Assembly: GCA_937901145.1 (NCBI GenBank)
Contig: CALCHE010000228.1
Span: forward strand, 11,709 to 75,708
DNA from: an uncultured Clostridia bacterium
GTDB taxonomy: Bacteria; Bacillota; Clostridia; Oscillospirales; Acutalibacteraceae
Reading direction: 5' to 3'
DNA: 64,000 nucleotides
A program made the translations under genes and the position numbers. The notes under the pieces are model-generated. The model was not told where the DNA came from and made no database searches. It worked only from the letters and a program-made list of their open reading frames with translations. Shown one piece after another: positions 1 through 16,574 of this stretch. Position 1 is the stretch's first letter. Each line of letters starts with the position of its first letter.

Positions 1-179
1 TAGTTTGCCATAGTTACAGCGTTCACGGGACAGATAGCATAGCAGTGACCGCACTGAATGCAGCGTTCATACATATATTCTGCCTTGCCGTCAATGAGTT
101 TAATTTTCTCTGAAACACAGTCTGCGACACATTTTCCGCAGCCGATGCATTTTTCTTTGTCGATAATAACAGGCTTCAT
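1..179 (-). CDS. 4Fe-4S ferredoxin-type domain protein, N-terminal part (gene runs off the window start)
   Basis: Reverse-strand ATG at 179-177. Hand translation MKPVIIDKEKCIGCGKCVADCVSEKIKLIDGKAEYMYERCIQCGHCYAICPVNAVTMAN shows two CxxCxxCxxxC cluster motifs. Absent from the ORF track because it is truncated. Confidence 0.6.
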   Translation of the reverse strand, partial: MKPVIIDKEKCIGCGKCVADCVSEKIKLIDGKAEYMYERCIQCGHCYAICPVNAVTMAN

Positions 180-297: not shown

Positions 298-2526
298 TTA
301 TTTTGTCGGAGGAGTGGTGGTAGCAGTTACTACGTCGATTATACCGCCTGTAGTCGCTACTTCTGATGTATTTTTCATGTCTTCCTCAGAAACTATAATG
401 CAGCTTCTTATTCTGTCGCCTGTGTCAAGATTATGCTCGATAATTTCGTTATTACCGATGGTGTAAAGAAGATTTCCGATGTATGTGCCTCGGAAAAGGT
501 CACTGAAATAATAGTCCCGATAGGTCACATTGTAGTCGCTACTGCTTACATTGTAATGGATGTAGCCAAGACTTTCTTTTATCTTGCCTTCTTCGATGGT
601 GAGGGTGTGAATACTATTTACGGTGTTTCCGTCACGGTAGTGGCTTACGGGAATACCTATCATATTTCTCTCTTTGTAGAAGAAGAGAGCCTTCGGGTTC
701 TCATTTACGAGAGAGTAAGCATCCCTGATAACGAAGGTGTCGGTTTCCTTCGGTTCTTTCTTGTCTCTTACATCGAAAACGGAAACCTTTACAGTGTCAA
801 ACTTAGCATTTTCGTCAGTTCCGTCATAGCCTATACCTACAAGATAGCCGTCAGCTATAGGGTGGATGTAGGTGGAATATCCCGGGATTTTCAGTTCACC
901 GGTAATTTCGGGCTTTGTCGGGTCAGAAAAGTCAATGATGAAAAGGGGGTCAGTATTATGGAATGTAACCACATAGCCTGTATCTCCCATAAAGCGCACA
1001 GCCTTTACCTGCTCATCCTTTGCGATGTCAGTAAGCTCACCGATGATGTTTAAGCTGTCGTCAAGAATATAAACACAGCTTACGTCCACTGCTTTTCGGT
1101 AGTCGTAGTAGGTAGCAGCTACACGGAGGTTGCCTTGATATTCGTCGAAGGAATACTGATTGAGACAGGTGCCTTTAAATGAGCCTGTGGCCTTGTGAGT
1201 AATCTCTGTGCCGTTAAGAGCGAAGGCGTTAACCACAGTTCTAACCGTTTCGTTATCGTCTCTGTTATAGTAATCAGCAGAATATACATAAAGATTTTTC
1301 GCTGTGGAGAAAATTTCAAATCCGTCACCCAGAACGGAAATGGCATCTACCTTACCTTCGGGTTTACTTGTGTCAAAGGCGGAAACTACGATATATCTCG
1401 TGCTGTCTTCATCTATCATATAGCATCTGGAATATGGTATACAGTCGCAGTTTACCTGAGGAATCGCATTCTTTTCTACCTCTTCTGCAGATGAGCCTCT
1501 TACGGTATAGTTGGTTACGGTATAGAGTATGCCGTCTACCATTCGAGAGGAAATGTAAGTGCCGTCCTGGTCGAAGCGTCTTATTTCCTTAGGTGCGTGT
1601 CTTTCACTGATGTCATAAATTACTGCATAGGTTTTCTCATTGTAGGTACAGACTGCAGTCAGTATGTCTCCGTCGAGATAAATATCCTGAATATACATGT
1701 CCGTGGTAAGGTCGCTGTGGTATTTTTCTGTGTTTCCTTTTTCTTTGATTTTTTCTAAAACCTCTGAATCCTTAAGCTCGATTTTCCCGCGGTAAACACG
1801 CTTCATTGATTCTGTGTCCACGATGGTGACAGCATTGGTATCCGAATAGCCTTTACCCGGGTAATTTACGATGTAAAGATATCTGCCGTCGTTTTTGATT
1901 ATGTCTCCCTCGTCTACATCGGTAACCTGTACATTGGTCGTGCCGTGAGGAACTGTGCCTGTGGCAGATTCACCTCGGTTTGCCTGTGCCTGAGGTACTG
2001 CTGTGGCAGCCATGGTAGGAGCCATATTCATGCTGTCTTCTGAAAGTGAATCAGTTGCCTCGTCGACGGTTGCTTCGAAAAGAACAATATCACTTGCATA
2101 GTTTATCACAGTATCGACATACTGATCAATTTTACCCTCGGCATACATTTTTACGAAATGGTTTTTAAGATCCTTTTCGCTTTTGGCCACCTTAAGGTTT
2201 GTTGATGTCGGTGCTTCTTTCTTTTCTTCTGTTTCCGGTTGTTCGTTATTCTGCTGCTCACTCGGAAGTACAGCAGGTGCAGTGGTGGGTGTACTCTGAT
2301 CTTCCACATCTACGAACTCACTTCTGAGACTTAATGAAAATACCGCTACGGTAATGATTGCGAGCATTGCTGCCGCAGAAAGCACCTTAGGTAAAATCTT
2401 TACCTTGACTTTCTTTTCGGGCGTGATACCTTTCTCTTGGAGCATTTTTATCATATTATTCTTCGAAAGGCTTTCGGGAAGCTCGATTTCTTTTTCGAAT
2501 TCTTCTTTTAATATATCTTTTTTCAT
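298..2526 (-). CDS. Membrane-anchored beta-propeller-domain protein, probable anti-sigma partner of the upstream ECF sigma
   Basis: 742-aa ORF. Short N-terminal cytoplasmic segment, one TM helix (LSAAAMLAIITVAVFSLSL), then a large extracytoplasmic domain with Beta_propel-type signatures (TNVQVTDVDEGDIIKNDGRYLYIV, NQYSFDEYQGNLRVAAT, VRFMGDTGYVVTFHNTDPLFIIDFSDPTKPEITGELKIPGYSTYIHP). Its start overlaps the sigma gene stop (ATGA, 2523-2526). Confidence 0.8.
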   Translation of the reverse strand: MKKDILKEEFEKEIELPESLSKNNMIKMLQEKGITPEKKVKVKILPKVLSAAAMLAIITVAVFSLSLRSEFVDVEDQSTPTTAPAVLPSEQQNNEQPETEEKKEAPTSTNLKVAKSEKDLKNHFVKMYAEGKIDQYVDTVINYASDIVLFEATVDEATDSLSEDSMNMAPTMAATAVPQAQANRGESATGTVPHGTTNVQVTDVDEGDIIKNDGRYLYIVNYPGKGYSDTNAVTIVDTESMKRVYRGKIELKDSEVLEKIKEKGNTEKYHSDLTTDMYIQDIYLDGDILTAVCTYNEKTYAVIYDISERHAPKEIRRFDQDGTYISSRMVDGILYTVTNYTVRGSSAEEVEKNAIPQVNCDCIPYSRCYMIDEDSTRYIVVSAFDTSKPEGKVDAISVLGDGFEIFSTAKNLYVYSADYYNRDDNETVRTVVNAFALNGTEITHKATGSFKGTCLNQYSFDEYQGNLRVAATYYDYRKAVDVSCVYILDDSLNIIGELTDIAKDEQVKAVRFMGDTGYVVTFHNTDPLFIIDFSDPTKPEITGELKIPGYSTYIHPIADGYLVGIGYDGTDENAKFDTVKVSVFDVRDKKEPKETDTFVIRDAYSLVNENPKALFFYKERNMIGIPVSHYRDGNTVNSIHTLTIEEGKIKESLGYIHYNVSSSDYNVTYRDYYFSDLFRGTYIGNLLYTIGNNEIIEHNLDTGDRIRSCIIVSEEDMKNTSEVATTGGIIDVVTATTTPPTK

Positions 2527-3068
2527 CTTAACACCTCATCTGTATGTAGCATCTGTCTTAATTTTTCCGTACTTCGCATAAGCTTAGAGCGTACTGTCGA
2601 GTCCTTGAGACTGAGCATCTTTCCTATTTCTTTACTGGTATAGCCGGAAATGTAAGAAAGAAGTATGATGGTCCGTTCTTCCTCTGTGAGCTTTTCGAGA
2701 GAATTTTTCAGACTGATTATTTCGCTCTGATCAGAATCCTCTCTGCATAAATCAATAAGTGAAGAAAGCTCGACCGTATCTCTTGACCTGATTTTTTCCG
2801 TGAGAGCTTTATTACAGCAGTTGTATAAAATTTTGAAAAGCCAGCTTTTGAAGGCTTCAGGCTTTTTCAGGGTACCTATTTTCTGAAAAGCTGTAAGCAC
2901 ACACTCACTTACACAGTCCTCGGCCAGGGGAGCAGAGCTTAAGTAATAAAAGGCGAACTTATACATATCCCTGCTGTAGGTCTCATAAAGAATTCCGAAG
3001 GCTTCAATATTTCCTTCTTTTGCTTTGATAACCAGATTGTTAATAATTTCTGAGCTCATATTTATCAC
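2523..3068 (-). CDS. ECF-type RNA polymerase sigma-70 family factor
   Basis: 181 aa with region 2 and region 4 organisation (C-terminal HTH YTSKEIGKMLSLKDSTVRSKLMRS). Translationally coupled to the downstream TM protein. Confidence 0.9.
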   Translation of the reverse strand: MINMSSEIINNLVIKAKEGNIEAFGILYETYSRDMYKFAFYYLSSAPLAEDCVSECVLTAFQKIGTLKKPEAFKSWLFKILYNCCNKALTEKIRSRDTVELSSLIDLCREDSDQSEIISLKNSLEKLTEEERTIILLSYISGYTSKEIGKMLSLKDSTVRSKLMRSTEKLRQMLHTDEVLR

Positions 3069-3194: not shown

Positions 3195-3356
3195 ATGGCT
3201 GATAAAGCGAAAAGAGACAGAATAATGAAAAAAGCACGTTCCGTAATAAAGGTAAGAACCGATGACGGACGCATTAAAAGTGATGTTAACGGCTCTTACA
3301 CAGGGGTTCCCTTCGACAAAAACGACAAACCCATACAGGATGCCGACGACCTCTGA
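3195..3356 (+). CDS. Small basic/acidic hypothetical protein (53 aa)
   Basis: Internal ATG of the 3087..3356 ORF, preceded by GAAAGGA 7 nt upstream. Product MADKAKRDRIMKKARSVIKVRTDDGRIKSDVNGSYTGVPFDKNDKPIQDADDL. The upstream 36 codons of the track ORF lie in AT-rich promoter DNA. No family recognised. Confidence 0.4.
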   Translation: MADKAKRDRIMKKARSVIKVRTDDGRIKSDVNGSYTGVPFDKNDKPIQDADDL

Positions 3357-3403
3357 GAGTAAAAGGGGACTTAATATTTTTATGTGTCCTTACCGATGAG
3401 GCA

Positions 3404-3484
3404 GCGGGTCGAATGAAAGCCCTGCGGGCTTTCCGCGGCTTCCCTACGGAAAGCCGCCCCCCCGTAAACGGGGATTCGACCCGC
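3404..3484. other. Isolated GC-rich element foldable as a four-way junction (outer 11-bp stem plus three hairpins)
   Basis: Outer stem GCGGGTCGAAT (3404-3414) pairs with ATTCGACCCGC (3474-3484). It encloses GAAAGCCC-tgc-GGGCTTTC (3415-3433), GCGGCTTCC-ctac-GGAAAGCCGC (3435-3457) and CCCCG-taaa-CGGGG (3460-3473). The flanks are AT-rich. Confidence 0.45.
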
Positions 3485-3525
3485 GTCCGTCTTTTCATCA
3501 TTTATTATTTAATTTAATAAAAAGG

Positions 3526-3611: not shown

Positions 3612-4070
3612 ATGAAAAAAGCTCTTTCAATCTTAATGTCAATTCTTATAATTGCTCTTTCCTTTACATTCATCGCATCTGCTGTTGATGCTTGTCCCGA
3701 ATGCGGAAGTAAAGAACATAAAGCTGAAAAGTGTGGTTGCTGCTTATATTGCCCCAACCTCGACACTGCACTTGTTGTTCCCTGTCTCAGAGACGGTGCA
3801 GGCATAAAAAAGGATCATAACGGCGAGATTGCATTCTGTTGTGGCGATTGTGACGGTTGGTATCCTTGCGACTGTAGCTGTGACTGCTGTGTAAAGGGTG
3901 CTTCCGATTTCGAAAACTCAAACAATAATCAGATATTAAATGAAAATCAGCAGCAGCAGGTTATCAGCGGTTTCCAGGCAGTTATGGCTCGTCTTCGTGA
4001 GTTCTTCGACAAACTCTTTGATACTATCTTCGAATTCTTAAGATTCGACGAAATTATGGGTAACAACTGA
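3612..4070 (+). CDS. Secreted Cys-rich protein (15 Cys) with a C-terminal amphipathic module related to the neighbouring small peptides
   Basis: ATG at 3612, 9 nt after GGAGG. Signal peptide MKKALSILMSILIIALSFTFIASA. Cys-dense core (CPEC, CGCC, FCCGDC, PCDCSCDCC), Asn/Gln linker, and tail FFDKLFDTIFEFLRFDEIMGNN. The track start at 3570 has no RBS. Confidence 0.8.
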   Translation: MKKALSILMSILIIALSFTFIASAVDACPECGSKEHKAEKCGCCLYCPNLDTALVVPCLRDGAGIKKDHNGEIAFCCGDCDGWYPCDCSCDCCVKGASDFENSNNNQILNENQQQQVISGFQAVMARLREFFDKLFDTIFEFLRFDEIMGNN

Positions 4071-4087
4071 TAAACAAATAATACATA

Positions 4088-4117
4088 AGAGACTGTCTTC
4101 GGACGGTCTCTTTTTTT
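4088..4117 (+). terminator. Intrinsic terminator
   Basis: AGAGACTGTC-ttcg-GACGGTCTCT followed by TTTTTT. Confidence 0.85.
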
Positions 4118-4159
4118 GTTAAAAAGCAGATAAAATATTAATTATTTTTGAATAAACTA

Positions 4160-4188
4160 TTGACTTTTTTATTTCTATCATATATAAT
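4160..4188 (+). promoter_or_regulatory. Sigma-A-type promoter for the P1-P2 peptide bicistron
   Basis: TTGACT (4160-4165), 17-nt spacer, TATAAT (4183-4188). Confidence 0.6.
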
Positions 4189-4239
4189 TTAAGCATATTA
4201 AGGGAAACCTTGATAAATTTAAAAAGGAGGCACACAATA

Positions 4240-4371
4240 ATGGAAAAATTCACTGAAATTCTCAAGCTCGTTCTTAACTATTTCTGGGAAATCTTCAAGT
4301 TCTGGGAAATCATCCCCGGCGATCTCGCTGACAAGATTGAAGACGAAGCTGACAAAGCAGCTCAGAACTAA
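4240..4371 (+). CDS. Small peptide P1 (43 aa), aromatic amphipathic N-terminal part plus acidic tail, no signal peptide
   Basis: AAAGGAGG then 8 nt to ATG. MEKFTEILKLVLNYFWEIFKFWEIIPGDLADKIEDEADKAAQN. Below the 60-aa cutoff of the ORF track. Confidence 0.6.
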   Translation: MEKFTEILKLVLNYFWEIFKFWEIIPGDLADKIEDEADKAAQN

Positions 4372-4418
4372 TTTAACTGATTAATTTAATCAAAAAATAC
4401 TTATAGGAGGAACACAAT

Positions 4419-4550
4419 AATGGATTGGGCAAAAAACTTTGCTGAAATGTGGGAACGTCTTTGGGACCTTCTTATTTTCCCCATTCTTAAAATGTTTGGC
4501 ATTGAAAAGAATGAAGACGGCAACCTTGAATACGTAGAAAAAGCTGAATA
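4419..4550 (+). CDS. Small peptide P2 (43 aa), same family as P1
   Basis: TAGGAGG then 8 nt to ATG. Its initiation region aggaggaacacaataatgga differs at one position from that of P1 (aggaggcacacaataatgga). MDWAKNFAEMWERLWDLLIFPILKMFGIEKNEDGNLEYVEKAE. Confidence 0.6.
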
Positions 4551-4580
4551 ATTCTATCTGAATTAAACAATTGTTTAAGG

Positions 4581-4615
4581 ACACAACCCACCTTTCGGTG
4601 GGTTGTGTTTTTTTC
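4581..4615 (+). terminator. Intrinsic terminator after P2
   Basis: ACACAACCCACC-tttc-GGTGGGTTGTGT (12-bp perfect stem) followed by a T-run. Confidence 0.9.
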
Positions 4616-4625
4616 TTTCTAAATA

Positions 4626-4654
4626 TTGACATTTCTGAGCAGTAGTTATATAAT
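4626..4654 (+). promoter_or_regulatory. Sigma-A-type promoter for peptide P3
   Basis: TTGACA (4626-4631), 17-nt spacer, TATAAT (4649-4654). Confidence 0.6.
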
Positions 4655-4686
4655 TATATTGTAATAATTATTGCAGGAGGAACTGT

Positions 4687-4791
4687 ATGATGAAAAACAT
4701 TGAAGCTTACTTTAAAGGTGTCGTTGACTGGATAGAGAGACTTTTCACTATTATTTTCGAATTCCTCGGCGATATCGGAGTAGAGGCATAA
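4687..4791 (+). CDS. Small peptide P3 (34 aa), same family
   Basis: GCAGGAGG then 6 nt to ATG. MMKNIEAYFKGVVDWIERLFTIIFEFLGDIGVEA. The segment RLFTIIFEFLGD matches KLFDTIFEFLRFD at the C-terminus of the 3612 protein, and both share the DNA string TTCGAATTC. Confidence 0.6.
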   Translation: MMKNIEAYFKGVVDWIERLFTIIFEFLGDIGVEA

Positions 4792-4840: not shown

Positions 4841-6025
4841 TTATCTGAACTTGTCGAAAAATCTTTTCTTTTCTTCACCGATAGTAGTGCCGTCGTCGAT
4901 ATTGTTCTTCGGCTTATTGGGGAGAGAATCGTTGAATTTTCTGAGCATTTCCTTCTGCTCGTTTGTGAGAGATTTCGGAACCTCTACCACGATTTTAACG
5001 AACTGGTCACCCTTACTGCGTGCGGAAAGCTGCTGAATACCTCTGCCTCTGAATCGGAAAACTTCTCCGGGCTGTGTTCCTGCGGGAAGGTCATATTTTA
5101 CCTTTCCGTCGAGAGTGGGGATGTAGAGCGTGTCACCGAGTGCCGCCTGAGCATAGGTTACGGGAACCTCACACCACACATTGAAGCCGTCACGCTCGAA
5201 GAAGGGATGGGGACGTACATTTACGTTTACACGAAGGTCGCCTGCAGGACCGCCGTTTACACCGGGATTACCGCCGCCGCTTACATTAAGTGACTGTCTG
5301 TCATCGATACCTGCGGGGATATTGATTTCCACGGTCTGAGGCTTGGATTCGAGACCTGTGCCGCGACATTTCTGACAGGGTGTTTTGACGATTTTACCCT
5401 TACCGCCGCATTCGTTGCACTGTCTGGTAGTGCTCATAACACCGAAGGCTGTTCTCTGCTGTATGTTTACCTGACCTCTGCCGTGACAGGTAGGACAGGT
5501 TTCCGGTGAGGTACCCTTAGCGGCACCTGAGCCGTCACATTCCTTACATTTTTCTACTCTGGTTATGTTTACCTTTTTCTTACAGCCCTTTGCCGCTTCC
5601 TCGAAGGAAATGGTTACATTGGTCTGAATGGTTGAGCCTTTACGGGGAGCGTTGGGGTTCTGCTGTCTGCCGCCGCCAAAGCCTCCGAAACCGCCGAAGC
5701 CGCCTCCGAACATACTGCCTAAAATATCTCCGAGGTCAAAATCTCCGCCAAATCCACCGAAACCGCCGCCGAAGCCGCCTGCACCGAAGTTGGGGTCTAC
5801 GCCTGCATGGCCATACTGGTCATATCTTGCCTTTTTATCGCTGTCAGAAAGCACCTCATAGGCCTCGTTTGCTTCCTTAAACTTAGCTTCAGCTGTGGCA
5901 TCACCAGGATTAAGGTCGGGATGATACTGCTTAGCGAGCTTACGGTATGCTTTTTTTATTTCATCCTCTGAAGCTCCCTTGCTTACGCCGAGGACTTCAT
6001 AGTAGTCGCGTTTATTTTCTGCCAT
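4841..6025 (-). CDS. dnaJ: Molecular chaperone DnaJ
   Basis: J-domain with HPD (KQYHPDLNP), Gly/Phe-rich linker, four CxxCxGxG zinc-finger repeats. Confidence 0.97.
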
Positions 6026-6103
6026 TTAATTTATCTTCCTCTCAAAGAGTGAAATCATAACACGGGCTGTCCGCTAAGGAACAGCCCATATCTTTTATCT
6101 TGA

Positions 6104-7987
6104 TCAGTTAGCGTCTGTAAAGTTTGCATCGGTGTAGCCGGCATCTGTGTAACCGCCATTGTCAGCAGCACCGCCGAAATCACCCTGATTGAAGCCGCCC
6201 TGAGCACCAGCGAAGTCATTGGGGTTGAAGCCCTGTGCACCCTGAGGATTAGCCTGCTGGTACATCTTTTCGCTGAGCTTGTAGAATGCCTGAGTGAGAG
6301 CTTCCTTTTCGTTTTTGATGAGGTTGATATCCTCGCCCTTGAGAGCATTCTTAAGAGAATCTATCTTAGCCTGGATGTCAGCCTTGTCGTTTTCATCCAA
6401 AGCCTTTGCGGCGTCTTCTGAAAGGATTTTTTCGCACTGGTAAACCATCTGGTCTGCTTCGTTTCTTGCGTCGATTTCCTCACGGCGTTTTTTGTCTTCC
6501 TGAGCAAACTGTTCAGCTTCTCTTACTGCCTTTTCGATATCTTCCTTGGACATATTTGTGCTGGAGGTAATGGAGATTGACTGCTCTTTACCTGTGCCGA
6601 GGTCCTTAGCGGAAACGTGAACGATACCGTTAGCATCGATGTCGAAGGTTACTTCGATCTGAGGAACACCGCGGCGTGCGGGCATAATGCCGTCGAGGCT
6701 GAATACGCCGAGAGTTTTGTTATCTCTTGCGAATTCGCGTTCACCCTGAAGCACGTGAACCTCTACTGAAGGCTGATTATCTACTGCTGTGGAGAAAATC
6801 TGGCTCTTCTTTGTGGGGATGGTTGTATTTCTTTCGATAACCTTTGTGTTGATACCGCCCATAGTTTCGATACCGAGTGAAAGGGGAGTAACGTCGAGGA
6901 GAAGAAGACCCTTAACGTCGCCGCCTAAAACACCGGCCTGAAGTGAAGCACCGATAGCTACACATTCGTCGGGGTTGATGCCCTTGAAGGGTTCCTTACC
7001 GATGTACTTTTTGATAGCTTCGCTTACTGCGGGAATTCTGGAAGAACCGCCGACCATAAGCACCTTGTCGATCTGATTTACGCTGAGGCCTGAGTCAGAG
7101 ATAGCCTGACGAACGGGACCCATAGTAGCTTCGACAAGATCAGCTGTAAGCTCGTTGAACTTAGCTCTGGTGAGAGTCATTTCCAGGTGAAGAGTGTTAC
7201 CTGCAGCATCTACAGTGATGTAGGGGAGTGAGATAGATGTGGAAGTGATGCCTGAAAGCTCTATTTTAGCCTTTTCTGCAGCTTCCTTAAGTCTCTGCAT
7301 AGCCATTTTATCACCGCGAAGGTCTACGCCTTCTTCAGCCTTATATGAAGATACCATCCAGTCGATGATTCTCTGGTCGAAGTCGTCACCGCCGAGACGG
7401 TTGTTACCTGCAGTAGCTAAAACCTCCTGAACACCGTCGCCCATTTCGATGATGGAAACGTCGAATGTACCGCCGCCGAGGTCGTAAACCATAACCTTCT
7501 GGTCAGCTTCCTTGTCGATACCGTAGGCAAGAGCAGCAGCAGTGGGCTCGTTAATAATTCTCTTTACCTCGAGACCTGCGATTTTACCTGCGTCCTTGGT
7601 AGCCTGTCTCTGAGCATCGGTGAAGTAAGCGGGAACAGTGATAACAGCTTCTGTAACTGTGTCGCCGAGATATGCTTCAGCATCTGCTTTAAGCTTCTGA
7701 AGAATCATAGCGGAAATTTCCTGGGGAGTGTAGTTTTTACCGTCGATGGAAACCTGATAGTTTGAACCCATCTGACGTTTGATAGAAGAGATAGTTCTTT
7801 CAGGATTTTTAACAGCCTGTCTTTTAGCTACCTGACCGATCATTCTTTCGCCTGTCTTTGAAAAAGCAACTACTGAGGGAGTAGTTCTTGCGCCTTCTGC
7901 GTTAGCGATAACTACGGGCTCGCCGCCTTCGATAACTGCTACGCATGAGTTTGTAGTACCTAAGTCAATACCGATAATCTTTGCCAT
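6104..7987 (-). CDS. dnaK: Molecular chaperone DnaK (Hsp70)
   Basis: [24 protein letters not shown] and the rest of the Hsp70 signatures. 627 aa. Confidence 0.98.
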
Positions 7988-11264: not shown

Positions 11265-13103
11265 ATGCCTGAAAATAAAAAACTTCCCATTCTTCGCAGC
11301 AAGGCAATGAAGCTGCCTCTTACTCCCGGTGTATATATAATGAAAAATAAAGACGGTAAAATTATATACATCGGCAAAGCAAAAAAACTGAAAAACCGCG
11401 TGAGTCAGTATTTCGGTTCTCAGAGCGGACACAGCACCAAGGTAAGAAAAATGGTCGAGAATGTGGATGATTTTGATTATATTCTTACGGACAGCGAGTT
11501 TGAGGCGCTGGTTCTTGAGTGTAGTCTTATCAAGCAGAATATGCCGAAATATAACATTCTTTTAAAGGATGATAAGGGTTACAGCTATATAAAAATTACT
11601 AAAGGCCCGTGGGGCAAAATAAGTCCCTGCTTCCGCAAGGATGATCCCGATGCAGATTATCTCGGGCCTTACACAGGTAACTATTCCGTAACCAATGCCT
11701 GTGCCCGTGCGGCGGAAATATTCCGTCTGCCCACCTGTAATAAGGTATTCCCACGTGATATTAAAAGCTCCCGTCCCTGTCTTAACTATTTCATTTCCCG
11801 ATGCAGTGCTCCCTGTGCCGGCAAAATAAGTCAGGCAGAATATGAGGAAAACCTTAAAAGTGCAGTAGAATTTCTGAAAAATCCCGATGCATCTGCTGTA
11901 AAAGAGCTTCGCGCGGAAATGGAAAAGGCTGCAGAAAACCTTGATTTCGAAAAAGCTGCTAAGCTCCGTGATCGTATAAAGGCTATAGAGAGAATTTCTC
12001 AGAAGCAGAAGGTGGTGGTTAACTCTGAAGGGGATGAGGATGTATTTGCCATCGCTCAGAGGGGCAATAAAGCCTGTCTGTCAGTTCTTTCCTTTGAACA
12101 GGGTGCGCTTAAAAACAGCGAGCATTTTATATTTGATACCGGTGAAAATCTTGCCGATGAAAGACAGTCACTTATTACCTCATATTATTCTCTTGACCGT
12201 AAGATTCCTCCGCTTATTATAGTGGACGGGGAGGTAAGTGACAGTGAGCTTATTACACAGTGGCTTTCGGAAAAGAGAGGTAAAAAGGTTACACTTCTTA
12301 TTCCTCAGAGAGGGGACAAGGTTAAGCTTACACAGATGTGTCTTACCAATGCAGCTCAGAAGCTCAGCGAGCATTTAGGCTTTTTCGGTGCAGATACAGC
12401 TGTGCTCGATGAACTGAAAAAAATCCTGGCCCTGAAAAAGACTCCCGAATATATCGAGGCTTATGATATATCTCACACAGCTGGCAGTGATAATGTAGCG
12501 GGTATGGTAGTATTCAAGGATGCCAGACCGCTTCGTAGTGCCTATAAGCGTTTTTCTATCAAAACCTTTTCAGGACAGGACGATTACGGTTCGATGCGCG
12601 AGGTAATCAGCCGAAGACTTAACCGCTATGTTGAAAACGAAGGAAGTGATGAGGGATTCGGCAGACTTCCTGACCTTATTCTTCTTGACGGCGGTCAGGG
12701 GCAGGTGAGTGCGGTCAAGCCTATAATCGAAGCATTCGGACTCGATATACCTGTTTTCGGTATGGTTAAGGACTCGAAGCACCGCACCAGAGCCATAACT
12801 GATGAAGGGCAGGAAATATCCATAAATTCGGGCAGAAAGGTCTTTACGCTCATTTCCTCCATCCAGGAGGAGGTGCACCGATTCGCCATAACCTACCACA
12901 AATCAAAGCACAGCAAAAACAGTCTTGCTCTGTCTCTAACCAAAATCGAAGGCATCGGCGAAAAAAAGGCAGCTCTTCTTCTTAAGCATTTTAAAACCCT
13001 GTCTAATGTAAGAACTGCTGACAGAGAAGCTCTCACAGCAGTAAAAGGTATCAGCCGAAAGGATGCAGAGAATATTTTCATTTATTTTAATGAGGTACGA
13101 TGA
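11265..13103 (+). CDS. uvrC: Excinuclease ABC subunit C
   Basis: 612 aa. GIY-YIG N-terminus (PGVYIMKNKDGKIIYIGKAKKLKNRVSQY), UVR domain, C-terminal HhH. Confidence 0.97.
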   Translation: MPENKKLPILRSKAMKLPLTPGVYIMKNKDGKIIYIGKAKKLKNRVSQYFGSQSGHSTKVRKMVENVDDFDYILTDSEFEALVLECSLIKQNMPKYNILLKDDKGYSYIKITKGPWGKISPCFRKDDPDADYLGPYTGNYSVTNACARAAEIFRLPTCNKVFPRDIKSSRPCLNYFISRCSAPCAGKISQAEYEENLKSAVEFLKNPDASAVKELRAEMEKAAENLDFEKAAKLRDRIKAIERISQKQKVVVNSEGDEDVFAIAQRGNKACLSVLSFEQGALKNSEHFIFDTGENLADERQSLITSYYSLDRKIPPLIIVDGEVSDSELITQWLSEKRGKKVTLLIPQRGDKVKLTQMCLTNAAQKLSEHLGFFGADTAVLDELKKILALKKTPEYIEAYDISHTAGSDNVAGMVVFKDARPLRSAYKRFSIKTFSGQDDYGSMREVISRRLNRYVENEGSDEGFGRLPDLILLDGGQGQVSAVKPIIEAFGLDIPVFGMVKDSKHRTRAITDEGQEISINSGRKVFTLISSIQEEVHRFAITYHKSKHSKNSLALSLTKIEGIGEKKAALLLKHFKTLSNVRTADREALTAVKGISRKDAENIFIYFNEVR

Positions 13104-13127: not shown

Positions 13128-13156
13128 TTGAAATATTTCACTGTGTGTGTTATAAT
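13128..13156 (+). promoter_or_regulatory. Promoter of the XRE regulator gene
   Basis: TTGAAA (13128-13133), 17-nt spacer, extended -10 TGTTATAAT (13148-13156). Confidence 0.55.
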
Positions 13157-13185: not shown

Positions 13186-13557
13186 ATGCTTGCAGATAAT
13201 CTCAGACTTTTAAGAAAAAATTTCAAACTGACTCAGCAGGAGGTAGCTGACATTCTCGGCATTGACAGAAGCACTTATACCTTTTACGAAGCCGGAAAAA
13301 GCACACCTTCGAAAGAAAATATAGTTAAGCTTTGTGATATTTTCAATGTGACAGTCGGCTATCTTTTCGGTGTGGAAAAGAACTGCCCTGAGTTGAAGGT
13401 TGCTAACCGTTCTGATTTCATAGATGAAAACCTTCACGGACTTAAGGAAATATCCAGAAATGAAAAGTTCATTCTTATGGCTTACAGAAGCCTCGACAGT
13501 GAAAGCAAGGAACAGTTTGTAGATGTGGTGAAAAAATTCCTCAAGGAAACAAAATAA
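13186..13557 (+). CDS. XRE-family helix-turn-helix transcriptional regulator
   Basis: 123 aa. N-terminal HTH_3 pattern (LRKNFKLTQQEVADILGIDRSTYTFYEAGKSTPS). Confidence 0.9.
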   Translation: MLADNLRLLRKNFKLTQQEVADILGIDRSTYTFYEAGKSTPSKENIVKLCDIFNVTVGYLFGVEKNCPELKVANRSDFIDENLHGLKEISRNEKFILMAYRSLDSESKEQFVDVVKKFLKETK

Positions 13558-13579
13558 TTATTTCTTTATATAAAAAATA

Positions 13580-13608
13580 TTGACAAAAAGGTCAATAAAT
13601 TATATACT
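13580..13608 (+). promoter_or_regulatory. Sigma-A-type promoter for the 13640 gene
   Basis: TTGACA (13580-13585), 17-nt spacer, TATACT (13603-13608). The track ORF start at 13580 falls inside this promoter. Confidence 0.55.
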
Positions 13609-13639
13609 TAAAGTACTAAATATTAAGGAGGAGATAACT

Positions 13640-14038
13640 ATGAAAAAGGTTATTTCAATTTTACTCGCAGTTTTAATGATGTTCTCACTCGTTTCAGTTG
13701 CATTTGCTACTGAGGATACAGGTACTACAGACATTCCTGTAACTGAAGCTCCCGAAGAAGGTACTGAAAGCATTATTCCCGACCTCGGTGAATATAACTG
13801 GATTCTTGACCTTCCCTTCTGGACAGTAGGTCCTGCTCTTAAGTTCGCAAAGATCGCTCTTAAGCTCGTAAGCGTTTACCTCAAGGTTGCAAAAATCTTC
13901 GGTCTCGTAGAAAAGGATATGGACGATTATATCATCGATATTATCAAGGGTATGATCGATGATGCACAGAACGCAGGTCAGACTGAAGAACCCACTACTG
14001 AAGCTACTGAGCCTTCATCAACACCTGTAATTGCATAA
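13640..14038 (+). CDS. Secreted protein: signal peptide, acidic Thr/Glu/Pro-rich flanks, central amphipathic module related to the small peptides
   Basis: ATG at 13640 after AAGGAGGAG. MKKVISILLAVLMMFSLVSVAFA signal. Core NWILDLPFWTVGPALKFAKIALKLVSVYLKVAKIFGLVEKDMDDY, in which KIFGLVEKDMD resembles P2 KMFGIEKNED. Confidence 0.75.
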   Translation: MKKVISILLAVLMMFSLVSVAFATEDTGTTDIPVTEAPEEGTESIIPDLGEYNWILDLPFWTVGPALKFAKIALKLVSVYLKVAKIFGLVEKDMDDYIIDIIKGMIDDAQNAGQTEEPTTEATEPSSTPVIA

Positions 14039-14051
14039 GATTACATATTAA

Positions 14052-14080
14052 AAGCATCCTTAGGGGTGCTTTTTTCTTTT
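14052..14080 (+). terminator. Intrinsic terminator
   Basis: AAGCATCC-tta-GGGGTGCTT followed by TTTTTCTTTT. Confidence 0.7.
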
Positions 14081-14158
14081 AAAAAGTTATAAAATCTTAT
14101 TTTTTTTATTAATAAATATTTAATTTCATTCAACTTTGCTTTTAATATTATTTACCTA

Positions 14159-14187
14159 TTGACAAAAGAATAACAATCAGTTAAAAT
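14159..14187 (+). promoter_or_regulatory. Sigma-A-type promoter for peptide P4
   Basis: TTGACA (14159-14164), 17-nt spacer, TAAAAT (14182-14187). Confidence 0.5.
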
Positions 14188-14217
14188 TAAATCAATAATT
14201 ATTAGGAGGACTAAACA

Positions 14218-14352
14218 ATGGAACTTATTGAAAAACTTTATCTTCAGATTTTAAACTTAATTCTTGATCTTCTCACAGCTTTCGGTGCTGATACCAGCGT
14301 TGTAGAGGAAATGATTAACGCTACTAAGAAAGAAGAAAGCGAAGAAGCATAA
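14218..14352 (+). CDS. Small peptide P4 (44 aa), same architecture as P1-P3
   Basis: TAGGAGG then 8 nt to ATG. MELIEKLYLQILNLILDLLTAFGADTSVVEEMINATKKEESEEA. Below the ORF-track cutoff. Confidence 0.55.
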   Translation: MELIEKLYLQILNLILDLLTAFGADTSVVEEMINATKKEESEEA

Positions 14353-14370
14353 TTATCTGTGAATCTCTTC

Positions 14371-14402
14371 ATCCTCCGATGAATTTCGGAGGATTTTCTT
14401 TT
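14371..14402 (+). terminator. Intrinsic terminator after P4
   Basis: ATCCTCCGA-tgaatt-TCGGAGGAT followed by TTTCTTTT. Confidence 0.8.
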
Positions 14403-14502: not shown

Positions 14503-15306
14503 ATGAATAATTTTATCGAATACATTGACAAGTCTTTTGAAAATATGAAGGAAACAGAATCACTGTACCGTTATAAGCAGAAGCTTTTGGCACAAATGAC
14601 GGAAAGAGCAAACGAACTTGTGGCTGCAGGTCTTAAGGATGATAAAATTATATGTGCCATAATTATGGATGAATATCCTGATCTTGCAGGCAAATATAAA
14701 GAATCGATGAAGAAAAAAACTGAAATGAGCAAAAAATCAAGGAAGAGCTCCCTTATTGCTGTCGGCACTATGGGCGGCATCTTCGCCGTTGTGTGTCTTT
14801 ATCTTGCTGTCAGCTTCCTTACAGGTGACTGGGGCAAAACATGGATGCTTCTTCTCGGCGGAATTTTTGCAGTTCTTGTTTTTATGTTTGTTGTCATTGC
14901 CGGAAGACTTACTAAAAAAACAGGAAAATTCGGCTTTGTTTCACGGATACTGTGTGTAGGTGCAGTAGCTCTTATAGCTACATATATGTTCCTTTTTACC
15001 ACGATAATTGTTCCTGTTCAGGGAAGCTGGATTATATTTGTACTGGCGATTCCCTTTGCCATGATTTTCGATATGCTATTATCTTATAAATTCAATAAAA
15101 AGACTGGAATTTTCAGTGTGCTTCTTTACATACCCGCTGTATTTACACTGTTTTATGTAGTTCTCGGTATAGCGAAGGTTCTTCCCTGGCATCCGGGTTG
15201 GCTCCTTATACTTTTGGGTATATTTGTAGATTTTGTGGTAGTAACTGTACGACTTCTTTCAGGTACGAAAGTAAAAGAGGAGGATGAAGGATGGAGCGAA
15301 GATTAA
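14503..15306 (+). CDS. Multi-pass membrane protein with an N-terminal soluble helical domain
   Basis: 267 aa. About 85 aa of charged helical N-terminus, then 5-6 hydrophobic spans. RBS GGAGGGG upstream. No specific family recognised; it resembles 'permease-prefix' membrane proteins. Confidence 0.75.
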   Translation: MNNFIEYIDKSFENMKETESLYRYKQKLLAQMTERANELVAAGLKDDKIICAIIMDEYPDLAGKYKESMKKKTEMSKKSRKSSLIAVGTMGGIFAVVCLYLAVSFLTGDWGKTWMLLLGGIFAVLVFMFVVIAGRLTKKTGKFGFVSRILCVGAVALIATYMFLFTTIIVPVQGSWIIFVLAIPFAMIFDMLLSYKFNKKTGIFSVLLYIPAVFTLFYVVLGIAKVLPWHPGWLLILLGIFVDFVVVTVRLLSGTKVKEEDEGWSED

Positions 15307-16574
15307 ATGCCGAGCTTTGGGATAAGATGCACTATCTATTCCGAGATTTTAACGACAGAATGGTTCATCTCGAGCTTCATTACGATTATGAAATTAACTA
15401 TGAAGCATTCCGGACGGTGCTTATCTGCTTCTTTGAAAAGGCACCTGTTTTCCATTCCGGCTTCGTGGATAATAAGGTAAGACCCTACTGGGAGGTAAAG
15501 CCCTACGATATCGACGATGTAATTACACTTAAGCATATTTCAGATGAAGAGGTTCCATTCGCTGTGGATAACTTTCTTACTCAGTATATTCCGCCTGAGA
15601 GCAGTTTACAGATGAAGGTAGGAGTGTTCTATCACAGCGGTAAAACTACCGTATGCTTTGTTGAGAATCATATGTGTATGGATGGCGGTGATTTCAAATA
15701 TTTCATAAGTGCCTTCTGTAAAAATTACAATGATTACATCGAAAAGGGAATATTACCTCTTAATTTTAAAGAGGGCACACGCTCTTATGAGTCGGTTTAT
15801 GATGATTTCACTCCCGCTCAGGAAAAAATGGCCAGAAACCTTTATAAAAATGTCTGTGCTAAGGATGACCACAAATTTCCTCTCACAGAGGACAGAGAGG
15901 AAGACCGTAGCTTTATAGCTCGAAGAAAGCTGACTGAGGAAGATTTCCTTATTCTTAAGCAGGTCGGCAAAAAATACGGTGCTACAGTAAACGACGTGCT
16001 TGTTGCTGCGTATTTTGACGCACTTTATAATCTGGCAGAATATAACCCTGATGACAGTGTTACCATTTCTTGCGCTATTGACCTTAGACGTCATATCAAA
16101 GACAGTACAGATCAGGGCATAACTAACCATACAGCTTTTATGCAGTGCAGAATACCCCGTCTCGGTGATGATATAATCGAAACACTGAAGTATGTGGTAA
16201 ACTCAGCCAATCTTTTCAAAAAAGATAAGTTTATGGGCCTTTACGGCCTGCCGCTTCTTCGTTTCGGTTATAAAATATTACCTCACGCCGCCAGTGAGGA
16301 GATAATCAAGATAGGCTATTCAAATCCGCTTCTGGCTATGAGTAATATCGGTATTCTTGACCATAAAGCTCTGGCTCTCGAGGGACATGAGCCTACTGAC
16401 GGATTTATGACAGGCGCAGTCAAGTATAAGCCCTATGTTCTCCTTTCAGCCACATCAATGAAAAATGTCATCACTCTTTCGATGTGTGTCAGAGGTAACA
16501 GTGATGATAAAAAAATTGTAGAACGGTTCTTCGATCTTTATGAGGAAAGCGTAGAAAAATTAAAAAATTCATAA
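15291..16574 (+). CDS. Stand-alone condensation/CAT-superfamily acyltransferase-like protein (HxxxDG motif)
   Basis: 427 aa. NHMCMDGGD matches the HHxxxDG catalytic motif of the NRPS C-domain, WS-DGAT and PapA families. Start overlaps the preceding gene by 16 nt, with RBS AGAGGAGGA 5-6 nt upstream. Confidence 0.7.
   Translation: MERRLNAELWDKMHYLFRDFNDRMVHLELHYDYEINYEAFRTVLICFFEKAPVFHSGFVDNKVRPYWEVKPYDIDDVITLKHISDEEVPFAVDNFLTQYIPPESSLQMKVGVFYHSGKTTVCFVENHMCMDGGDFKYFISAFCKNYNDYIEKGILPLNFKEGTRSYESVYDDFTPAQEKMARNLYKNVCAKDDHKFPLTEDREEDRSFIARRKLTEEDFLILKQVGKKYGATVNDVLVAAYFDALYNLAEYNPDDSVTISCAIDLRRHIKDSTDQGITNHTAFMQCRIPRLGDDIIETLKYVVNSANLFKKDKFMGLYGLPLLRFGYKILPHAASEEIIKIGYSNPLLAMSNIGILDHKALALEGHEPTDGFMTGAVKYKPYVLLSATSMKNVITLSMCVRGNSDDKKIVERFFDLYEESVEKLKNS

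Follow-up and report, generated by a model that had tools for sequence, protein, structure and literature searches.

We analyzed a stretch of 64,000 nucleotides from an uncultured Clostridia bacterium (contig CALCHE010000228.1, in the following called the window), in which a run of small genes downstream of uvrC (11265-13103) had been flagged. Very probably, this region is the half next to uvrC of a lineage-restricted gene system that is fixed in the chromosome of Acutalibacteraceae (Oscillospirales) living in herbivore guts. The system comprises a regulator of the XRE family with a helix-turn-helix (HTH) domain, one or two exported proteins, named carrier2 and carrier1, and 0 to 11 peptide mini-genes, most of which are cassettes of promoter, AGGAGG, open reading frame (ORF) and terminator. 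In the window, the uvrC-proximal locus consists of four separate transcription units on the plus strand, located between uvrC and an operon for a nucleoside ATP-binding cassette (ABC) transporter, and contains the genes for the XRE protein, carrier2 and the peptide P4. The genes of carrier1 and the peptides P1, P2 and P3 form another locus (3612-4791). The distance between the two loci is 8.8 kb, in agreement with the 9 kb given in the initial annotation. For coordinates and regulatory signals see Table 1.

A scan of one genome per GTDB species resulted in 37 loci (referred to by L numbers). The order uvrC, XRE, carrier2 was found in 37 of 37 loci, with the XRE gene detected in 36 and uvrC being 69-97% identical. 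All source sequences are metagenome-assembled genomes named Acutalibacteraceae, Oscillospiraceae, Clostridia or "uncultured Faecalibacterium"; the hosts, where titled, are ruminants (sheep, goat, roe deer). A near clade of 11 genomes (uvrC 91-97%) has a P4-like cassette downstream of carrier2, with the genes for a 267-aa and a 427-aa protein next in line. Thirteen more distant genomes carry a carrier1 homologue (29-43% identical) directly downstream of carrier2, and in 12 of these 13 it is followed by 1-11 small peptide genes, all in one block behind the same XRE gene beside uvrC. Since carrier2, carrier1 and the peptide genes form one block elsewhere, the two loci of the window are, judging from gene order, parts of one system that is contiguous in other genomes. 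Several assemblies apparently carry both carriers on one contig, in one case with locus tags ten genes apart. The other locus also recurs as a unit. Its order in the window (carrier1, the P1-P2 bicistron, P3) is collinear with that in L026, L034 and L037, where carrier1 is followed by a bicistron (peptide subfamily C, then B) and a single gene (subfamily D). L042 and L043, the latter belonging to the near clade, show the complete surroundings as in the window, i.e. the gene for an extracytoplasmic function (ECF) sigma factor, a 53-aa ORF, carrier1, three peptide genes and dnaJ.

A blind scan for peptide genes covered both strands of the 37 loci and the window (about 450 kb) and accepted ORFs of 25-65 aa whose ribosome-binding site measured at least 5 nt, whose N-terminal half was hydrophobic and whose net charge was -2 or lower. 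Of the 61 ORFs obtained, 60 are located on the same strand as the carriers and closely behind them. The largest arrays contain 11 (L024), 7 (L035) and 6 (L030) peptide genes, and in each of these three the P4-like peptides (subfamily A) occupy the distal end. The encoded peptides are leaderless: they have a length of 29-53 aa, start with M-D/E without a basic n-region, and consist of an amphipathic helix, usually an F/L-G motif, and an acidic tail. The net charge is between -2 and -9 for all 60 peptides, the sign being partly due to construction, as -2 or lower was a selection criterion. A promoter of its own (TTGAC[AT]-16..18-TAnnnT), with A/T-rich sequence ahead of it and a leader of about 30 to 58 nt behind it, was found for 51 of 60 peptide genes; the other nine follow another peptide gene, as in P1-P2, or carrier1. 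Over their entire length, the L035 and L024 arrays show terminators and promoters in alternation, the latter with scores of 10-12 of 12. Such near-consensus promoters together with perfect ribosome-binding sites would imply very high expression.

In the flagged region itself, the scan gave 14 promoter-like sites (6.3 +/- 2.4 in shuffled sequences) and 2 terminator-like sites (0.5 +/- 0.7 in shuffles). The proposal that each gene has its own promoter and terminator was confirmed for carrier2 and P4, which are flanked by near-consensus promoters, AGGAGG sites and hairpins. A start that had been proposed at TTG 13580 is actually the -35 box of the carrier2 promoter.

The predicted P4 peptide was found as annotated, with a net charge of -7 and the plan of hydrophobic helix, F-G and acidic tail. 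Its amphipathic helix spans aa 1-22 and leads via an FG-x-D turn into a second, short helix and the tail. Orthologues are present in 11 other species-level genomes about 190 nt downstream of carrier2. All 12 orthologues keep the frame open, while 30 and 36 stops were counted in the two alternative frames. Substitutions at codon positions 1, 2 and 3 amount to 775, 521 and 973, the third position being the most variable, and the ratio of nonsynonymous to synonymous substitution rates (dN/dS) is ~0.47 (helix 0.50, tail 0.75), values that are rough because dS is near saturation. Invariant residues are M1, Y8, I11, L12, L14, I15, G23 and D25, five of which (Y8, I11, L12, L14, I15) are hydrophobic and spaced as one helix face. 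On the basis of the open frame, the stops in the other frames, the third-position variation and dN/dS, P4 is therefore predicted to be a translated, weakly constrained small protein and not a chance ORF or a small RNA (sRNA). Its pattern is constrained more than its sequence (dN/dS ~0.47 compared to 0.10 for the carrier2 core). That P4 might nevertheless be non-coding, i.e. a chance ORF, an sRNA or a type I toxin-antitoxin locus, would fit the very short ORF, the mere 6 relatives returned by an exact-word protein search and the presence of its own promoter and terminator, as in sRNA genes. The frame that is open throughout the orthologues, the well-spaced AGGAGG, the eight invariant positions and a dN/dS below 1 make this extremely improbable. 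Furthermore, there is no transmembrane segment as in type I toxins: the residues Q10, N13 and D17 lie on one face of a helix that is amphipathic. Neither locus has a credible Rfam match, and the sole antisense promoter-like site is weak (9 of 12). We also considered the N-terminal helix as an atypical Sec signal cleaved after FG and rejected this, since a basic n-region is missing, the helix contains polar residues and conservation is lowest in the tail.

The carrier2 sequence starts with a Sec-type signal (aa 1-23), MKKVISILLAVLMMFSLVSVAFA, followed by TE after the cleavage site. Signal peptides were judged from the n-region, the h-region and the A-x-A motif together with the alignment and profile matches in the PDB. 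For carrier2 the layout is MKK, ISILLAVLMMFSLVSV, and AFA before TE, with features that are invariant or nearly so in 30 homologues, as expected for a substrate of Sec and signal peptidase I. In the PDB, the family profile matches nothing but bacterial signal peptides that were retained in the deposited sequences of Fab chains. The signal is followed by an acidic Thr/Glu/Pro linker, a conserved core (aa 47-112) and an acidic low-complexity tail. The 30-member alignment thus agrees with the domain order of the initial annotation, with a core of about 65 aa. The core has the sequence DLGEYxWILDLPFWTVGPALKFAKIALKLVSVYLKVAKIFGLV(xKD) followed by an acidic helix. Signal peptide and core are nearly invariant in the 30 diverse members, and the linkers are hypervariable in length and sequence; dN/dS is ~0.10 for the core and 0.35-0.60 for the linkers.

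An AlphaFold2 model of carrier2 (30 sequences, predicted local distance difference test (pLDDT) 62) shows the signal helix, a disordered segment (residues 25-48), three helices (49-56, 63-87 and 94-111) and a disordered tail. The helices of the core have pLDDT values of 70-82. Helix 63-87 (ALKFAKIALKLVSVYLKVAKIF) is Lys-rich and amphipathic with five Lys on one face, a charge of +5 and FG at its end; helix 94-111 is acidic. The wider family retains the Lys-zipper helix LKxAKIALKLVKVFxKLG. We found 212 homologues of carrier2 in a collection of 5.8 billion proteins, all unnamed or "hypothetical". Matches over most of the protein make up only about 50 clusters at 50% identity in an exhaustive profile search of 1.84 billion representative proteins. 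The same search gave no informative domain partner apart from one weak fusion to a GDSL-lipase-like domain. This fusion is found in a 699-aa protein (P0153, L041 786-2885), in which the carrier2 module directly follows the signal peptide and precedes a Cys-rich stretch and a weakly GDSL-lipase-like C-terminus (E 0.0011, 20 bits, below the Pfam cut-off of 32.9 bits). A 331-aa protein (P0167) has the module at the same position. This suggests that the carrier2 module can act as an N-terminal anchor for larger exoproteins. In some lineages the exported helix proteins are duplicated. L032 contains two tandem carrier2 paralogues (6001-6874), and L038 (242-867) and L046 (1563-2378, minus strand) encode an additional exported protein of 83-89 aa with a basic amphipathic helix at its end, just upstream of the carrier2-like gene.

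Carrier1 is composed of a Sec signal, a Cys-rich domain with 14 invariant or nearly invariant Cys residues and His36, and one long, Phe-rich amphipathic helix at the C-terminus. In the AlphaFold2 model (42 sequences, pLDDT 59) the Cys-rich domain was not modeled, and residues 111-149 form a single confident helix (pLDDT 81-90). Profiles of the peptide subfamilies were compared with hhalign, using the reversed target and 60 column shuffles as controls. The P3 family matches the C-terminal helix of carrier1 with a score of 33.2 (probability 92-95%, E = 6e-7 to 6e-8, z = 10.8), which none of the 60 column shuffles reached; the score of the P3 hidden Markov model was reached by 1 of 2000 shuffled P3 sequences. 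The match is visible by eye (DWIERLFTIIFEFL compared to EFFDKLFDTIFEFL). As judged by these profiles, the P3 lineage is a free copy of the carrier1 C-terminal helix. Calculated over 18 residues, the hydrophobic moments of six helices (those of P1-P4 and of both carrier cores) are 0.50-0.73, and those of the peptide helices alone 0.50-0.65, at a modest mean hydrophobicity. These moments are comparable with those of delta-toxin and AgrD. Such combinations of moment and hydrophobicity are typical of the "surface-seeking" region of the Eisenberg plot.

The XRE gene upstream of carrier2, which had been predicted correctly, encodes a protein with an N-terminal HTH and a C-terminal helical part of about 55 aa. 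With a score of 60.5 bits against PF01381 (HTH_3; Pfam gathering cut-off 23) it belongs to the XRE/Cro-C1 HTH family. Pfam and NCBIfam scans detected no second domain, no tetratricopeptide repeat (TPR) and no other sensor domain. It thus does not have the architecture of RRNPP regulators (Rgg, PlcR, PrgX, AimR), in which a peptide-binding domain of the TPR type, at least about 200 aa long, is attached to the HTH. A pairing of the SinR/SinI type was rejected as no SinI domain was detected. The gene lies between uvrC and carrier2 in 36 of 37 loci, recurs upstream of divergent carrier2-like genes in L039 and L046, and has a dN/dS of 0.07. The carrier2 promoter block cTTGACAAA...TATATACT...TACCAAAT...AGGAGG is recognizable in most of the 37 loci, with the -10 box and the leader varying in the most distant ones. 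Inverted repeats on the promoter spacer are clade-specific: ATTGAC-N6-GTCAAT in the clade of the window and ACAAAT-N7-ATTTGT in another clade (L012, L015, L017). The XRE proteins of clades with different repeats are 33-40% identical. This is consistent with the repeats being candidate operators for a co-evolving XRE protein.

Phenol-soluble modulins (PSMs) are amphipathic, lack a signal peptide, have a length of about 45 aa in the beta-type and are exported by an ABC transporter (PMC5442197). LspU is a leaderless amphipathic small protein that is encoded beside the gene of a Sec-secreted lipase and traps the enzyme at the cell surface (PMC12607899). We tentatively propose that the peptides of the present system are highly expressed, membrane- or surface-seeking helices that could work at the envelope like PSMs or LspU; this is a possible reading, and one that we hold with caution. 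The strong promoters and ribosome-binding sites would lead to very abundant amphipathic helices that seek the membrane surface. The exported carriers would be located in the wall or at the outside of the membrane, with the amphipathic core serving as an anchor or interaction surface and the acidic Thr/Glu/Pro tails extending through the wall. As surfactants of the PSM-beta or LspU type, the leaderless peptides would partition into the membrane. They might be released by an unlinked exporter, by vesicles or by lysis, and might associate with each other and with the carrier helices by helix-helix packing. This would alter the properties of the envelope or surface, for example with respect to aggregation, antagonism or the retention of exported proteins. 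As a repressor, the XRE protein would control the cassettes via operators overlapping the promoters. Taking identity and mechanism together, we consider this the best overall explanation and judge its chance of being right as somewhat below even. A more elaborate version is on the unlikely side of what we consider possible. It describes a new envelope system in which the two Sec-exported proteins would display amphipathic helices outside the membrane, and a variable set of free, leaderless helix copies with very high expression, at least one of them derived from the C-terminal helix of an exported protein, would co-assemble or compete with them across or within the membrane. The peptide repertoire would then set surface and aggregation properties or strain-specific interactions, under the control of one XRE repressor and with no dedicated exporter.

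Several results weigh against the PSM- or LspU-like reading or limit its reach; they concern the similarity of the helices, the pairing of the genes and the chemistry of the peptides. According to the initial annotation, both loci pair a carrier of a shared module with free peptides. For the carrier1 locus this agrees with the match to P3 described above. In the case of carrier2, the proposed resemblance of AKIFGLVEKDMDD to LKMFGIEKNEDG of P2 could not be reproduced: the core scores 15.0 against subfamily B (P2-like; z = 2.3, reached by 2 of 60 shuffles), which is not above the reversed or shuffled controls, and 12.3 against subfamily A (z = 1.0, reached by 8 of 60 shuffles), i.e. no likeness above chance. 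The plan of helix, FG and acidic helix in carrier2 resembles the peptides in architecture only. Because the core shows no detectable relation to the peptides, their co-assembly is a conjecture. Among the peptides, subfamilies A and B gave a score of 28.9 (z = 9.3, reached by none of 60 shuffles), B and C 42 (z = 13.8), D and E 30 (z = 7.5), and C and E 24 (z = 5.2), to be read against reversed controls of these periodic sequences that score up to 29. P4-like and P2-like peptides are, by this comparison, related at the profile level, and part of the similarity between subfamilies may reflect shared helical periodicity and not descent.

Pairing was evaluated for 34 loci in which the downstream sequence extends over about 900 bp or more. 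In 10 of these, carrier2 has neither carrier1 nor a peptide gene adjacent, and in one, carrier1 is present without peptides. The genome of L045, which has only carrier2, contains no carrier1 or peptide gene within +/-10 kb. The lineage of L046 and L047 shows uvrC, XRE, an 89-aa exported basic-helix protein and a carrier2-like gene, with a carrier1-like gene on the other side of uvrC, and no leaderless peptide in 14 kb. L039 has an XRE gene before a very divergent carrier2-like gene, and L040 a carrier2-like gene followed by a carrier1-like gene. As peptides are absent beside carrier2 in these 10 loci and in L045-L047, the exported proteins can function without adjacent peptides. The XRE gene and the exported helix proteins are therefore, in terms of gene content, the conserved core, and the leaderless peptides are an accessory part that expands and contracts. 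The expected co-occurrence of carrier and peptide thus holds by locus for the 11 near relatives with P4 and the 12 genomes with arrays, and fails for the peptide-less loci. Retention of the secreted protein without a P4-like ORF, which the initial annotation had named as an observation that would speak against the system, is at the level of loci partly what we observe. Its broader claim, that the small ORFs and the secreted proteins form a recurring functional system and are not chance ORFs, is supported by the synteny of carrier2, carrier1 and peptide genes in other genomes, with recurring carrier-peptide blocks in 12 of them, by the 212 carrier2 homologues and by the coding signature of P4.

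With respect to chemistry and export, the negative charge of the peptides (-2 to -9) is uncommon among membrane-lytic peptides of bacteria. Beta-type PSMs are weakly anionic. None of 49 peptides matches a model for PSMs (PF05480/PSM-beta, PSM-alpha), delta-lysin, AgrD or bacteriocins at E <= 1. Within the 6-10 kb flanks of any locus there is no gene for an ABC transporter or other exporter, immunity, a protease or other processing function, maturation, a radical-SAM enzyme or AgrB. In addition, all source organisms are uncultured.

The charge distribution of carrier2 allows for a different assignment of roles, in which carrier2 is the Sec-dependent precursor of a bacteriocin whose cationic helix is silenced by its own acidic helix and acidic flanks, and the acidic peptides are the cytoplasmic immunity factors or antidotes, with the arrays as orphan immunity genes. 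A Lys-rich helix with all Lys on one face and acidic pro-regions resembles a classical antimicrobial helix, the peptides have the opposite charge, P4 directly follows carrier2 as class II immunity genes usually do, and tandem, independently promoted paralogues recall immunity islands. However, the nearly invariant carrier2 core (dN/dS 0.10) and the peptides, which evolve about 5 times faster, show the reverse of a toxin-driven arms race. Moreover, carrier2 occurs without an adjacent peptide in at least 10 loci, its N-terminal position in larger proteins fits an anchor better than a toxin, and no bacteriocin or immunity family was matched; we consider this assignment improbable. The relation between P3 and carrier1 would also be explained if the peptides stayed in the cytoplasm and bound the helices of the carrier precursors before Sec export, as chaperones or as regulators of export or assembly. 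The missing export signal and linked exporter, the acidic tails, which would keep the peptides soluble, and their accessory relation to the core of exported proteins are in line with such decoys or escorts. It is difficult, however, to explain up to 11 divergent paralogues for two clients, no peptide subfamily other than P3 resembles a carrier helix, and the very strong promoters suggest bulk and not regulatory amounts. Such an intracellular role is in our view quite unlikely.

It could also be that the genes are merely neighbors, the site downstream of uvrC-XRE being a hot spot for promoter-ORF-terminator cassettes with P4 and carrier2 independent of each other. Each gene is indeed its own transcription unit, carrier2 is not similar to the peptides, the peptide content varies from 0 to 11 among genomes, and in the clade of the window carrier1 and three peptides are found at a different site. 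This last point cuts both ways, since at that other site carrier1 still has three peptide genes beside it in the same order. Together with the restriction of peptide cassettes to the vicinity of carriers (60 of 61 in both strands of about 450 kb) and the helix shared by P3 and carrier1, it leaves little probability for adjacency without shared function. Finally, the plan of amphipathic N-terminal helix and acidic C-terminal tail resembles AgrD, and a regulator gene is adjacent, so that the peptides might be signaling precursors of the AgrD or Phr type: the helix would target the membrane, and a processed fragment would be released and sensed by the neighboring XRE protein. We regard this as very improbable. 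P4 lacks Cys altogether, and the alignment shows no conserved residue that could form a thiolactone or lactone. Neither AgrB nor a processing enzyme is encoded in the flanks, and the 267-aa membrane protein, which is limited to the near clade, has no AgrB domain. The 123-aa XRE protein has no TPR or peptide-binding domain. The helix is conserved, with the tail as the least constrained part (dN/dS 0.75) and some members almost tail-less, and no AgrD model was matched.

In a broader comparison with known families, scans of carrier2, carrier1 and P1-P4 against Pfam, NCBIfam, PADLOC and PHROG gave nothing beyond signal-peptide-like N-termini, and for the XRE protein the HTH only. The 49 peptides searched individually against Pfam and NCBIfam gave no match. 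In the PDB, sequence searches with carrier1 and the carrier2 profile found signal-peptide or noise matches only. No relatives of either carrier were found on viral contigs (IMG/VR), and among anti-phage defense and phage families (PADLOC, PHROG) only the generic HTH of the XRE protein matched. The long arrays are bounded by uvrC and a ybaK-like gene with pcrA. Metagenome scans with the P4-like and P2-like subfamilies gave no confirmed locus, a result that is uninformative as the confirmation used only the first, divergent sequence. A literature search with keywords and exact peptide motifs returned no description of these proteins. WXG100/type VII substrates are helical hairpins of about 100 aa with a central W-x-G, unlike the present peptides of 29-53 aa with an F/L-G turn and no Pfam match.

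The resemblance to PSMs, LspU, class IId bacteriocins and AgrD is functional and architectural only. Like staphylococcal PSMs, the peptides (PSMs: about 20-45 aa) are leaderless amphipathic α-helices encoded as tandem paralogues with wide divergence between species, and like LspU they are encoded next to a gene for a Sec-secreted protein. They differ from PSMs in that they match no PF05480, PSM-alpha or delta-lysin model and have no linked Pmt-type ABC exporter in the 6-10 kb flanks. Further differences are the regulator, which belongs to the XRE type instead of Agr, the much more pronounced acidic tails (net charge -2 to -9), and the mostly monocistronic cassettes, each with promoter and terminator. 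The cassettes also accompany two dedicated exported helix proteins, and the organisms are uncultured Oscillospirales that live as strict anaerobes. Aureocin A70, enterocin L50 and garvicin KS exemplify the leaderless multi-peptide bacteriocins of class IId, which have a strongly cationic, Trp/Lys-rich composition and are encoded with ABC transporter and immunity genes. The present peptides share with them the tandem organization of several helical peptides of 30-50 aa without leader, but are anionic, have no linked transporter or immunity gene and match no NCBIfam or Pfam bacteriocin model. The chaplins of Streptomyces as well as TasA and TapA of Bacillus subtilis (with the XRE-type repressor SinR) all have signal peptides. 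As in short and long chaplins, a shared helix or domain occurs both alone and within a larger exported protein (here P3 and carrier1), and as for TasA/TapA and SinR, envelope or matrix proteins are encoded beside a small XRE-type repressor. Unlike in these systems, however, the peptides have no signal peptide, no sequence relationship exists, and no SinI/SinR oligomerization domain was detected in the XRE protein. With AgrD the peptides have in common a length of about 45 aa, the N-terminal amphipathic helix and the acidic C-terminal tail. They differ by the lack of a ring-forming Cys or Ser, of AgrB and of an AgrD model match, and by the conservation of the helix instead of the middle segment.

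The locus is thus an undescribed, lineage-restricted system with an unusual cassette architecture, while leaderless amphipathic peptide loci as such are of a kind already known. Small proteins of less than 50 aa are the least annotated part of bacterial genomes, as exemplified by the 6 P4 relatives in the searched protein collection. The system provides a comparatively validated example, in which two families of exported proteins and five or more related peptide subfamilies have no Pfam or NCBIfam model, and with repeated promoter-ORF-terminator cassettes at a fixed chromosomal site in abundant, uncultured Oscillospirales of hindgut and rumen. If the peptides are surfactant- or PSM-like, PSM biology would extend from staphylococci to strict gut anaerobes, with anionic chemistry. 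If they are free helix copies that tune envelope assembly, this would be a new regulatory or structural principle. Either way, the families merit models so that the genes get annotated, and the system is accessible with synthetic peptides without culture.

Table 1. Genes and regulatory signals of the two loci in the window.
Feature	Position	Strand	Remarks
XRE gene promoter	13128..13156	+	TTGAAA-17-TATAAT with TG extension (extended -10); block kept in 12 near-clade genomes
XRE-family HTH regulator gene	13186..13557	+	123 aa; PF01381, E = 1.6e-16
Carrier2 promoter	13580..13608	+	TTGACA-17-TATACT; overlapped by inverted repeat ATTGAC-N6-GTCAAT (13579-13596)
Carrier2 AGGAGG ribosome-binding site	13626-13631	+	8 nt upstream of the ORF
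Carrier2 gene	13640..14038	+	132 aa, Sec-exported
Carrier2 intrinsic terminator	14050..14073	+	hairpin aaagcatcc...ggtgcttt, kept in most of 12 near-clade genomes
P4 promoter	14159..14187	+	TTGACA-17-TAAAAT; block cTATTGACAAAA-N13-GTTAAAAT and 30-nt leader kept in 12 orthologous loci
P4 AGGAGG ribosome-binding site	14204-14209	+	kept across P4 orthologues
P4 gene	14218..14352	+	leaderless 44-aa peptide, net charge -7
P4 intrinsic terminator	14371..14394	+	hairpin and T-run at the same place in 12/12 orthologous loci; stem sequence different in each
Carrier1 gene	3612..4070	+	152 aa, Sec-exported, Cys-rich
P1 (4240-4371) and P2 (4420-4551) genes	4240..4551	+	bicistronic, leaderless acidic peptides, one promoter
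P3 gene	4687..4791	+	leaderless 34-aa peptide; helix matches carrier1 C-terminal helix

Downstream of P4, the plus strand of the window (14503-16574) encodes a polytopic membrane protein (267 aa) whose N-terminal domain is soluble and helical, followed by a 427-aa acyltransferase of the condensation/WS-DGAT/PapA5-like type (PF00668, E = 5e-8). The two genes overlap by 16 nt and are thus probably translationally coupled. They follow P4 in every near-clade genome of sufficient length (one contig stops inside the first gene) and are absent from the locus in distant clades. They may constitute a lipid- or envelope-modifying pair. As members of the peptide system they were rejected because the adjacency is limited to the near clade.

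Divergent from the carrier1 locus, the minus strand (298-3068) carries the gene for the ECF sigma factor (181 aa), which overlaps by 4 nt with the gene for a 742-aa β-propeller protein (PF09826), so that the two are probably translationally coupled. This arrangement is kept in L042 and L043, and the two proteins possibly form an anti-sigma pair. Between the sigma factor gene and carrier1, a 53-aa basic ORF (MADKAKRDRIMKKARSVIKVRTDDGRIKSD...) is located at 3195-3356 on the plus strand. It is 94% identical in L042 (4584-4745) and L043 (4477-4638) and has no family match. It is followed, ahead of the carrier1 promoter, by a GC-rich sequence (3395-3491, plus strand) that is predicted to fold into a three-way junction and precedes a U-run. 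The calculated free energy is -62.5 kcal/mol (z = -7.4), and none of 200 shuffled sequences folds as well. A search of Rfam gave no match for this structure at E <= 0.1; it may represent a structured RNA not yet described or an elaborate form of terminator. At the equivalent position of L043 (4638-4886) the gene caller assigned an 82-aa ORF rich in Gly, Pro and Arg.

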